Position numbers and translations under genes: made by a program. From Hydrolagus affinis (Eukaryota), in assembly GCA_012026655.1 (NCBI GenBank), contig JAAILG010001175.1, positions 1 through 64,000 on the forward strand: DNA of 64,000 nt. Reading direction: 5' to 3'. Positions 47,140 through 51,469 of the stretch are shown piece by piece. Numbering within the stretch: position 1 is the stretch's first letter; the number at the start of each line of letters is the position of its first letter. Below the pieces are notes generated by a model. That model was not told the origin of the DNA. It saw nothing but the letters and a program-made list of their open reading frames with translations, and did no database searches.

Positions 47140-47390
47140 CACACCTTCTGCTTGTCCCTCATGCCCTCCGTTTCACCATCGGTGGCTGCGCTTTCAGCCA
47201 CTATGACCATAAACTCTGGAACACTCTTCCTCTATCCCTCCTCCTTGCCCCTTCTCCATCTTCAAGTTGTGCTTGTAGACCTTCCTCTTTGACCTATTCC
47301 TTCCTACCTGTTCTGTGTCGTCCACCACTGTCAAGTGCTCTGGGACACTACCCTGCATGAGGGGTGCTATGTAAATGCAAGCTGTTTTTT
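47140..47390 (+). mobile_element. L2 LINE 3' end in intron 4, antisense to the gene
   Basis: TIGGCAFSHYDHKLWNTLPLSL motif plus GGTGCTATGTAAATGCAAG tail. Confidence 0.82.
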
Positions 47391-47411
47391 GAGAAAAAAT
47401 GTACGACTCAC

Positions 47412-47580
47412 CTACTACATAATCTCCAAACCCAATGGTGCTGAGAGTGATGAAGGAGTAGTAAATGCCCTCTCTGTAGGACCAGTCCTCCATTGTACTG
47501 AAGACCAGTGGTGGTATCAGCAGGAAGACCAGCACACCAGCCAACAGTGAGAGTGAGAACGCTAAAACTTTCACTCTTTT
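47412..47580 (-). CDS. KCNK16: KCNK16-like coding exon 4 (TM3, P2 filter TIGFG; 169 nt)
   Basis: Acceptor tttcag|AAA, donor GTA G|gtgagt. KRVKVLAF...FLLIPPLVFSTMEDWSYREGIYYSFITLSTIGFGDYVV-G. Confidence 0.96.
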
Positions 47581-48073: not shown

Positions 48074-48240
48074 CTCCATCAAACATTTGTTGGTTAGACA
48101 CGTGCGCATTTTATCCGTGTAGGAGGATAAGTGTTTCCCAACTAGCCCCAGAGCGATCAAGTTGAGCGGGATTCCAAACAGTGCATAGAACACACAAAAG
48201 ATCTGGCCTTCAGCTGTGCTTGGGGAAAGGTTTCCATAGC
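48074..48240 (-). CDS. KCNK16: KCNK16-like coding exon 3 (P1 filter GYG, TM2; 167 nt)
   Basis: Polypyrimidine tract then ccaaag|GC, donor GAG|gtacac. GYGNLSPSTAEGQIFCVFYALFGIPLNLIALGLVG...; phases 1 and 0 fit the neighbouring exons. Confidence 0.96.
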
Positions 48241-49257: not shown

Positions 49258-49378
49258 CTATTGTCGTCACAACGGTGGCCACAAAAAAGAAAGAGCTGCC
49301 AAAATCCCAGTTACTGTGAGCAGTCATGGAAGAATTGCCGATAGGGTTGACTCCATGTTTCAAGGCTTCAATCATGAC
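49258..49378 (-). CDS. KCNK16: KCNK16-like coding exon 2 (cap to pore helix 1; 121 nt)
   Basis: Acceptor ctgtag|GTC, donor ATA G|gtgaga. VMIEALKHGVNPIGNSSMTAHSNWDFGSSFFFVATVVTTI-G closely matches TALK-1 SNWDFGSSFFF..TVVTTIG. Confidence 0.95.
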
Positions 49379-49469
49379 CTACAGTGATAGCAAATATAAC
49401 TCATGTTATTTGAGCTCTGTACTTGCACTGCTTCTTCCCAAATCTGGATTAAAGTTGTGTTCAAATATT

Positions 49470-49750
49470 AAACATAGATTCAGAGAGCACAGAAAGATGC
49501 CATTCAGTCCATCATGTCCGTGCCCACACTTTGAAAGAGCTATCCAATTAGTCCCACTCCCCCCACTCCACTTGTTCTTCATAGCAATTTTTTTCTTTTC
49601 AATTAATTATCCAATTCCCTTTTAAAAGTTAGTATTGAATCTGCTTGCACCACTCTTTCAGGCAGTGCATTCCTGATCGTATCAACAAGCTGCATTAAAA
49701 AAAATCCTCTTCATCTCCCCTCTGGTTCTTTTTCCAATTATCTTTGATCT
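49470..49750 (-). mobile_element. CR1 LINE 3' end in intron 1, same orientation as the gene
   Basis: Homologous to 4980-5200 and 8000-8350 (GCCATTCAGTCCATCATGTCCGTGCC...CACCACTCTTTCAGGCAGTGCATTCC). Confidence 0.75.
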
Positions 49751-50551
49751 GAAGTAAATGTGGAAAAAATACATTTTTTTGTTCACTGAAACCAACACGT
49801 TTTTACACAAGCAAAATTGTTCGTTTTCATCACTAGTTGTCCCATTCTTGGTACCCAGAATTAGAAAAGGTTACCAGGCAGGATGGTTGAGGATGCTGGC
49901 CTCAATTAAAGAAATAGCTCGATATTGTATGAGCTATTGTAATTCTAAAAGAATTAGATCAAATGGATTGAAGGACCATCTTCATTCAAACAGCCTCCCC
50001 TTAAGCTTCAGTAATGTTCAATCACAAACATTCAATAGTGAACACATTTCCCTCTTAGTTTTTAAAGCTCTCCAGCTTCAAAGGTGCATTGAATAGGATC
50101 AATAAGAATGAGGTGCAGACTTGGTTATCAAAGGAAACACACAGGGCAAACACAGAAGATTGGGGAGGGGGAAGGAAGTACGCTCCCGGACTCCGAATGT
50201 ATCTTAGACGAATTGTGGACAATCTGATGCTTTATAAGAATTGTGGATGATTTGATTTCCTCCCGCAAAGTTAGCAACTTTACAGATAATGGAATTGTGA
50301 AGGCCAATTTTTTTTTGCAAAGGTATTTTACAGTCAGGATTGGGACCCTTCCTTCTCTGTTTTTTTGTTCCTCCTCTGCGGGATTCTCTCTTTGTAGCCA
50401 AAACGAAAAGTTGTTACTAGTACTTCCTAAAATCAGGGAACTTAAGATTGCTTGTTGCTTAAATAAACTTTACAAATATGAATGGTCATATTACAACTCT
50501 CCAAATAACAACACAAACACACACACACATACAGAGATCAGAATTACTTAA

Positions 50552-50752
50552 CTTCACAAACTCTTCCAACGCCTCTGCAGTGAGACAAGTATAATTTTCC
50601 AGGAAGTGGAATTTCTCTTTCCACACCACAGTCTTGGTTTTGTCTTCTTCTTGTAACTCCAGGGCCTGGAACACAGCGGCTCCGATCAGTAGGTAAGCCA
50701 GGTAGATGAGGATGAGGAGCACTGTAGTGCTGGGGCGTTGACAGAAGGACAT
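50552..50752 (-). CDS. KCNK16: K2P channel KCNK16/TALK-1-like, coding exon 1 (N-terminus, TM1, cap helix; 67 codons)
   Basis: gtcaccATG Kozak context. MSFCQRPSTTVLLILIYLAYLLIGAAVFQALE...KFHFLENYTCLTAEALEEFVK matches TALK-1 TM1 and the ENYTC cap motif. The 3' boundary is set by homology and phase 0; the donor there is non-canonical (TT). Confidence 0.9.
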
Positions 50753-50818
50753 GGTGACAGAGCGTCAGTAGCCGGACCTCATCACAGGCAAAGTCGCAGA
50801 AAGAGGAAACAGATTCTC

Positions 50819-50826
50819 CTTTTATA
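50819..50826 (-). promoter_or_regulatory. Proximal TATA box of the KCNK16-like gene
   Basis: Consensus TATAAAAG on the minus strand about 70 nt upstream of the ATG, preceded by TGCCGC. Confidence 0.6.
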
Positions 50827-51469
50827 GCGGCAGAAATTACATCCTGCCCTGCAGTTTGTGGTATTGTGGCTCATACAATCTACCAAACATTCTACACTTG
50901 AACTAGCACTGCGTTCAAGAAGAGTCTGTGTGCCTTTTCTGCACTCGATCTTTGGTAGCTGCAAGGTAACGTTTTGAATTTGTTTCCTCTTCCTACAGAG
51001 TTTGAATGCCTGGAGATCAGTAAAAGTTCCACTCACTTCCCTGACTTTTGTTCGGAAAACAAGAGTAGTTCGTTTAAAAAAACAAACAATAATCTCTGCA
51101 TTTGATGTAGCACTTTATCACTTTGTTGAGATGTCTCGAAGCTCTTCACAGAATACATTGCAAAGTTTAAGCAGTCTAACCTGTCTTTTTAAAGCTGCTT
51201 TGCTGGTTGGTGCCAGTGAATTGAATCATCTCAATCAAACCACACATTGAAGTGATTGGATTGATTTGCTGTTCTGTCATTGCCTGTGTAATAAGTAGAG
51301 CCACACACCAACTGCTTTGGAAACAAACTGGTTTGTCATTTAACTTCAAATGGAGGTTTGCACTGGGAGAGGCTATTTACATTCCTTTATGTGCCTGCTA
51401 TTTGCTGACCCTTTCTAAAAAAAAATCTTGTTGCTTTTGGCTTTTTATTGCTGCATGTTGGGACTTGCA

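Follow-up and report, generated by a model that had tools for sequence, protein, structure and literature searches.

Does the first intron of a chimaera K2P gene begin with TT, and if so, how is it removed? The gene lies on the minus strand of a Hydrolagus affinis contig (JAAILG010001175.1, assembly GCA_012026655.1), of which positions 1 to 64,000 were analysed as the window. At the end of exon 1, where GT is expected, the minus strand reads AAG/TTAAGT (the slash marks the cut). An original prediction, made from the sequence alone, left three options for this site: a natural TT-AG intron that limits channel output, a loss-of-function allele, or a base-call error. Here these options are weighed with homologous proteins, DNA and RNA of related chimaeras, and the U1 genes of the assembly.

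Structure and identity of the gene

A five-exon model (Table 1) gives an open frame of 354 amino acids, with the pore signatures TIGYG and TIGFG and with Pfam PF07885 on exons 2-4. All four of its junctions are present in RNA of a related chimaera, organism B. The open frame agrees with the earlier claim that the coding sequence outside the donor is free of lesions. The 5' UTR is at least 400 nt long, and its five upstream ATGs open short frames that end ahead of the main start, a possible translational brake.

The top homologs are KCNK16-like proteins of the elephant shark, Callorhinchus milii (83-84% over exon 4). In a midpoint-rooted tree of 34 chosen proteins, which includes two long branches, the gene is the neighbour of the elephant shark locus (99/99), and both fall within a clade of KCNK16-like proteins (100/98). 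KCNK16 proper (mammalian, skate and gar) forms a separate clade of 11 rows (100/99), and KCNK17 also stands apart. Judged by this placement, the gene is a KCNK16-like paralogue and not an orthologue of mammalian KCNK16 (TALK-1); of the earlier description as a TALK-1-homologous K2P gene, the K2P part stands, and KCNK16 proper is replaced by the paralogue. Exon 1 is a single copy in the assembly, and when homologs of it were sought in longer proteins, none of 124 candidates passed. A whole-genome search with skate KCNK16 returned no closer locus among the 53 candidates scored in this fragmented assembly, and TALK-1 proper may have been lost in the chimaera or may be missing from the assembly.

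Several shark models (P0023, P0124 and P0127) join other first exons to exon 2, which would drop M1 and most of the cap; no such joint is found among the RNA joints listed for organism B. The catshark orthologues P0025 and P0126 do not carry the cap cysteine at its usual position. The read-through of intron 4 (47386-47411) is similar over about 8 codons to that of the elephant shark model, so intron flanks are still alignable at this distance.

Table 1. Features of the KCNK16-like gene and its first intron in the window.
Feature	Positions	Strand	Basis
5' UTR, minimum extent, five upstream ATGs	50753..51150	-	RNA depth runs to the end of the stretch compared
Exon 1, coding part (M1 helix, cap to EEFVK)	50552..50752	-	frame; organism B RNA coverage
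Purine-rich hexamers (starts 50650, 50621, 50566) within the final 100 nt of exon 1; candidate exonic enhancers	50561..50650	-	search with known purine-rich enhancer motifs
Competing GT dinucleotides (after 50558, 50553, 50548)	50547..50557	-	none among RNA joints listed
Non-canonical 5' splice site AAG/TTAAGTAA (-3 to +8; TT = 50551-50550)	50544..50554	-	consensus match, RNA joint, organism B contig
U/G-rich tract and TG repeat adjoining the donor downstream (52% U, 81% U+G); candidate intronic enhancer	50490..50543	-	composition
Intron 1, 1173 nt, TT...AG	49379..50551	-	skipped in 2 + 21 RNA reads; plus-strand ends CT..AA
High-copy repeat fragment within intron 1	49476..49744	.	contig depth up to ~50,000 vs ~50 alongside
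Intron 1 acceptor ...TTTGCTATCACTGTAG	49379..49399	-	sequence
Exon 2 (cap end, pore helix 1)	49258..49378	-	homology, RNA
Exon 3	48074..48240	-	homology, RNA
Exon 4 (pore 2)	47412..47580	-	homology, RNA
Exon 5, coding part including stop codon	44882..45288	-	homology, RNA

A TT donor at an old intron position

The minus strand reads GTGAAG/TTAAGTAATT, with 50552 as the final base of exon 1 and T (plus-strand A) at 50551; these are the same letters from which a TT rather than a GT donor had been read. Eight of the 11 positions from -3 to +8 match the donor consensus, and the window contains the 9-mer AAGTTAAGT a single time, both strands counted. Exon 2 starts at 49378 and is preceded by ...CACTGTAG, a canonical AG behind a pyrimidine-rich stretch. 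A U12-type intron was rejected, as the donor is TTAAGTAA and not the U12-type RTATCCTT.

The coding part of exon 1 comprises 201 nt and 67 residues and ends in phase 0. To place the junction, 21 donors (every GT and GC between 50585 and 50470, together with the TT) were combined with 11 AG acceptors. Twenty pairs are open and in frame, and only the TT with 49378 gives a spacing of 20 between the cap cysteine and the glycine of the G-V-N-P motif. Among 215 homologs examined, 38 of them unscorable by the pattern used, this spacing is found in 173 of the 177 scorable proteins (18 in three, 14 in one). The TT junction keeps the ancestral cap spacing, and it is the junction that had been placed from phase 0 and TALK-1 homology.

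The competing sites behave as originally described. Joined to the 49378 acceptor, either of the two nearest GTs (after 50553 and after 50548) shifts the frame and soon meets a stop, which for the cut at the -1 GT is at codon 69; in frame are the donor after 50558, which drops 2 residues, and the first in-frame donor of the TG repeat, 50525, which adds 9. A purine-rich AG at 49365 would keep the GT after 50548 in frame (spacing 17); this join is absent from the RNA joints listed. The donor after 50558, whose two-residue loss is in the register of the Ensembl elephant shark model, was rejected on its weak U1 duplex (-1.7 kcal/mol) and the lack of an RNA joint.

In 111 homologs examined at this position, 17 are without the cap cysteine by the pattern, 13 were scored as spliced and 81 as read-through. 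Val (GTN) stands at the exact donor position in 61 of the 81 read-through homologs, and inspection by eye shows among the remaining 20 KCNK17 and TWIK forms that are spliced but were misfiled by the scoring rule. Two unnamed K2P proteins, P0224 and P0230, carry Leu where the first intron codon would give Val; these are probably odd models, possibly TT donors. The intron position is old and normally GT-starting, and since homologous introns start with GT, the direction of change (GT to TT) is clear.

The donor in related chimaeras

Six of the 15 listed runs were compared with the window: four DNA contig sets and two RNA runs. The listed runs are from species other than that of the window, and the best share of a run is 0.49. 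Position 50551 is covered by two of the four DNA sets, those of organisms A and B, and not by X12 and X13. The organism B contig matches the window over 50540-50687 with 0 differences and 0 gaps (depth 67), and the run is free of A>C changes throughout. The organism A contig (49715-50950) has 32 other letters, of which 31 are listed, none at 50551. Going by table order, the remaining A>C row should lie near a contig end and not at 50551: for every row shown, one run or more is no closer than 58 letters to a contig end, and 50551 is 255 away, from which we infer that the position is unchanged in organism A. This contig also spans the U/G-rich tract downstream of the donor, and all 7 of its gap letters fall elsewhere.

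Thus, the TT donor in intron 1 of the chimaera KCNK16-like gene is real. An error at 50551 might be suspected, given that the genome is fragmented into 245,464 contigs and that the DNA and RNA reads compared come from related organisms; the identical base in the independent organism B refutes the base-call option and leaves such an error practically no chance. The same contig provides one comparison with an orthologous locus of another chondrichthyan, as had been proposed for a check. Intron 1 diverges from the window by ~2.8% in organism A and ~2.4% in organism B. At this divergence an unchanged donor is often expected by chance. The shared T is thereby shown to be real and inherited, but selection on it does not follow.

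Two other differences of organism B were seen. Its DNA contig carries a 3-base in-frame insertion at 49349 in exon 2, at about half the usual depth, which is not listed in its RNA and is probably a polymorphism. Codon 111 (48231), which directly follows the first pore signature, encodes Asn in the window but Thr in organism B, and amphibian orthologues share the Thr.

Use of the TT donor in RNA

The two RNA runs, X14 and X15, come from one sample of organism B in one study; 27-30% of each run was read, at 95% likeness. The RNA donor differs from the DNA individual of organism B, and none of the RNA rows shows base 50551 itself. With non-canonical junctions allowed, as had been suggested, 50552 joins 49378 in 2 + 21 = 23 reads, with 16 start places in X15, a short side of up to 49 letters and a mate direction consistent with minus-strand RNA. 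The three GT-AG junctions of the gene have 32, 27 and 31 reads, which is no difference from the 23 (chi-square P 0.62). The joint table has 10 rows, and the other six lie in repeats. Joints to the GTs at -1, -6 or +4 or to the TG repeat all stay below the 3 reads required for listing in X14 and X15. The joint of a shifted-register cut, 49378-50553, is absent from the 10 rows, and decay may hide its product; the upper 95% bound on the share of an unseen donor in X15 is ~25%, as a worst case. In X15, the three bins of intron 1 that are free of repeats have a sense depth of ~1% of that on the exons. In X14, which has few reads, the depth is 1.75 in one intron 1 bin, and the likeness filter removes some intron reads. 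Separately, exon 1 depth in X14 is low (50487-50948; 1 read at 50713) against 10-12 on exons 2-3, unlike in X15, which may be noise or another 5' end.

A SNP in the RNA donor or template switching during reverse transcription might also give rise to such a junction. The direct repeat there is 2 letters, as against 2-3 in the other introns of the gene; the position is homologous, and DNA and RNA are from different samples. TT..AG, GT..TA and AG..GT placements give an identical mRNA, and reads alone cannot separate them. In a GT..TA arrangement the 5' cut would fall at the -1 G, through a shifted or bulged U1 register, and the 3' cut one base ahead of the G of the AG. This is sequence-equivalent to TT..AG, and cutting at -1 is documented at G-TT sites (PMC6280755). 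However, it requires a non-AG 3' end beside a good AG, and according to the same text ETV1 and FBXO9, which have the same 2-base ambiguity, were cut at +1 once moved into a reporter. We therefore regard the GT..TA placement as highly improbable.

A natural TT-AG intron is supported by the DNA of relatives together with the junction reads. That the TT limits channel output, also part of the original prediction, finds no support in steady-state counts, although frameshifted products would decay unseen. In such a throttle the TT would be used, but many of the transcripts would be cut at the -1 GT or keep the intron and then be destroyed, limiting channel dose; this is compatible with TT splicing as such and differs in its efficiency. 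Several features lean this way: FBXO9 (aAG TTAAGTAT) was cut at both -1 and +1 in reporters (PMC6280755), the -1 product here would meet its early stop, 23 is the lowest of the four junction counts (the others being 27-32), and sense depth in intron 1 is slightly above that in the non-repeat bins of the other introns. The differences are, however, non-significant (P 0.62 and 0.28), no GT-AG joint to 50553 attains the 3 reads needed for listing, and intron depth is only ~1%, so a throttle appears rather unlikely. The donor and acceptor of the window's species are identical to those of organism B, and we infer that it splices intron 1 alike.

U1 pairing and splice-site context

The intron is very probably a natural TT-AG intron, and the ordinary major spliceosome would excise it at the ancestral position. 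The ancestral GT would have mutated to TT, and the T at +1 would be tolerated because the rest of the donor is nearly perfect: normal U1 could pair at -2, -1 and +2 to +7, with a single mismatch at +1. With the U1 5' end taken from the genome, the duplex at the TT donor is -5.5 kcal/mol, against -5.7 for the GT donor of intron 3. The neighbouring GTs are predicted to pair worse (-4.0 kcal/mol at +4 and -1.7 at -6). The cut may be held at +1 by the GT at +5/+6, by the purine-rich exon elements and by the downstream U/G-rich tract. Some leak to the -1 GT, with the stop at codon 69 and likely decay, would be expected from FBXO9, and none is seen in the RNA.

These elements recall what is known of human TT donors. 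In PMC6280755, TT ranks second among non-GT donors and requires enhancers, and an accurate +1 cut at TT needed a GT at +5/+6, with submaximal U1 pairing. TIA1 sites alone failed to activate TT in that report, and exonic elements may thus matter more.

A variant U1 snRNA with a compensating base could also read a TT donor. A U1 of this kind was proposed, speculatively, for the GA-AG introns of Eurytemora (PMC7072748), and the U1 search in the chimaera genome was shallow, with 42 of 18,365 candidates scored. That search gave 14 matches; 10 loci were examined, 3 of them without a usable 5' end, and all of the intact readable 5' ends (7/7) are canonical. Human TT donors of the same sequence are, moreover, spliced in human cells with no added U1, as far as PMC6280755 reports. 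A variant U1 is thus left with a slim chance.

Constraint and age of the substitution

Between the window and organism B, 13 coding differences are listed, 10 non-synonymous and 3 synonymous (dN/dS ~1, Fisher P 1.0); the counts are from the listed rows, the rest being judged low-support. Both coding classes run at about half the intron rate, with the non-synonymous rate at 0.4-0.5 of it (deficit P ~0.01). Constraint on the protein looks weak. Under such weak constraint the T may have become fixed more easily, and there is no need to assume that the TT is adaptive.

The dN/dS of ~1 on these differences might suit a decaying gene or a loss-of-function allele, in which TT splicing is a residual leak. 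However, the 354-aa frame is open, the in-frame junction is as frequent as the others in organism B and is the only spliced product listed for this intron, the non-synonymous rate is below the intron rate, and the T is common to lineages 2.4-2.8% apart in intron 1. Nor did the 53 genome candidates scored include a closer TALK-type locus. Loss of function, as once suggested for this allele, is accordingly unsupported and very unlikely.

The elephant shark bears on the age of the TT. Its RefSeq model XP_007891507.1 (P0012, also in UniRef) begins at the exon 2 methionine, and a second model, P0013, is two residues short at the junction, in the register of the weak GT at -6. The UniRef entries of this species are presumably Ensembl-derived. 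No full elephant shark model with spacing 20 is found among the best 120 of 158 matches. Exon 1 protein identity to the elephant shark is 43/56, which is consistent with shark pairs, where exon 1 is also among the least conserved exons. To judge from the database models, both breaks are likely the expected output of a GT-only pipeline at a TT donor. Counter to this, two teleost models share the two-residue loss and a basking shark model is also without exon 1; since those two teleost models are likewise from Ensembl, the shortening of P0013 is weak evidence alone. A search for chimaera ORFs that run through the junction, and from which the elephant shark donor could be read, found none in a collection from which the window's own ORFs are absent; the best match was P0013, and the others were at most 55% identical.

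The elephant shark split from the other chimaeras is dated by a crown age of 173 Ma from morphology and a divergence at ~245 Ma from DNA (bioRxiv 10.1101/2024.08.01.606185). The broken elephant shark models hint at an origin of the TT more than 170 million years ago. The balance tips slightly towards fixation of the G-to-T change in the chimaera stem before the elephant shark split, with the TT since then a constitutive and near-exclusive donor. If so, this TT-AG intron would be exceptionally old, and a natural example of a +1G>T change made good by nothing more than the surrounding sequence, where changes of this type mostly disrupt splicing in humans. The TT donor likely explains the lacking or shortened cap in the two public models of the elephant shark, and mis-annotation as truncated may by the same token affect similar genes.

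Comparison with known non-canonical introns

The literature searched, which covered few subscription papers, holds no report of this intron or of TT-AG introns in cartilaginous fishes; the supplements of PMC4176328 (file 1) and PMC7072748 (per-species splice tables) may include the class. TT-AG junctions number 27 in total in PMC4176328 and make up 10 of the 184 high-confidence non-canonical sites of the U2/U12-like kind in human, and the ETV1 TT intron is there called constitutive. The chimaera intron is an addition to this known, very rare class, of the ETV1/FBXO9 type. It has DNA support from more than one species, and its junction reads are as frequent as those of ordinary introns. The reasons for the occasional rescue of +1G>T could be dissected in this natural setting.

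The KCNK16-like paralogue of sharks, coelacanth, lungfish, sturgeon, amphibians and reptiles has intron 1 at the same position. Database models of those lineages keep spacing 20, whereas both elephant shark models break at the junction.

FANCC c.165+1G>T (Hartmann 2010, as cited in PMC6280755) is likewise a G-to-T change at +1 of a donor with an otherwise strong U1 match. It is, however, a disease allele with low TT use, whereas the TT product of the chimaera gene is the only one listed and has normal frequency. Shifted and bulged U1 registers (Roca and Krainer 2009, Roca 2012, via the same text) find their counterpart in the overlapping GT that the -1 G and the TT give here too (GAA/GTTAAGT). 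A cut in such a register falls at the GT and would frameshift the chimaera gene, and such a joint is not listed. The GA-AG introns of FGFR and of Eurytemora and Oikopleura also pair a non-GT donor with AG, the FGFR case being evolutionarily conserved (PMC4176328, PMC7072748). They differ from the chimaera intron in their dinucleotide, and the U1 copies read here give no sign of a variant U1.

The closest likeness is to human ETV1 and FBXO9, which share with the chimaera gene AAG/TTAAGT from -3 to +6, the GT at +5/+6, a canonical AG and the 2-base ambiguity of placement (PMC4176328 and PMC6280755). In PMC6280755 the two natural human sites behave differently, as FBXO9 is cut at -1 and +1 and ETV1 (aAG TTAAGTtg) only at +1. 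At +7/+8 the chimaera gene has AA, ETV1 TG and FBXO9 AT, so that the chimaera donor, AAG TTAAGTAA, falls between them; compared with ETV1 it has one additional matching base (+7). Unlike ETV1 and FBXO9, as these two are described there, the chimaera case belongs to a cartilaginous fish and to a gene for an ion channel, of which it is the first intron, and its TT is common to chimaera lineages while the homologous introns elsewhere begin with GT.
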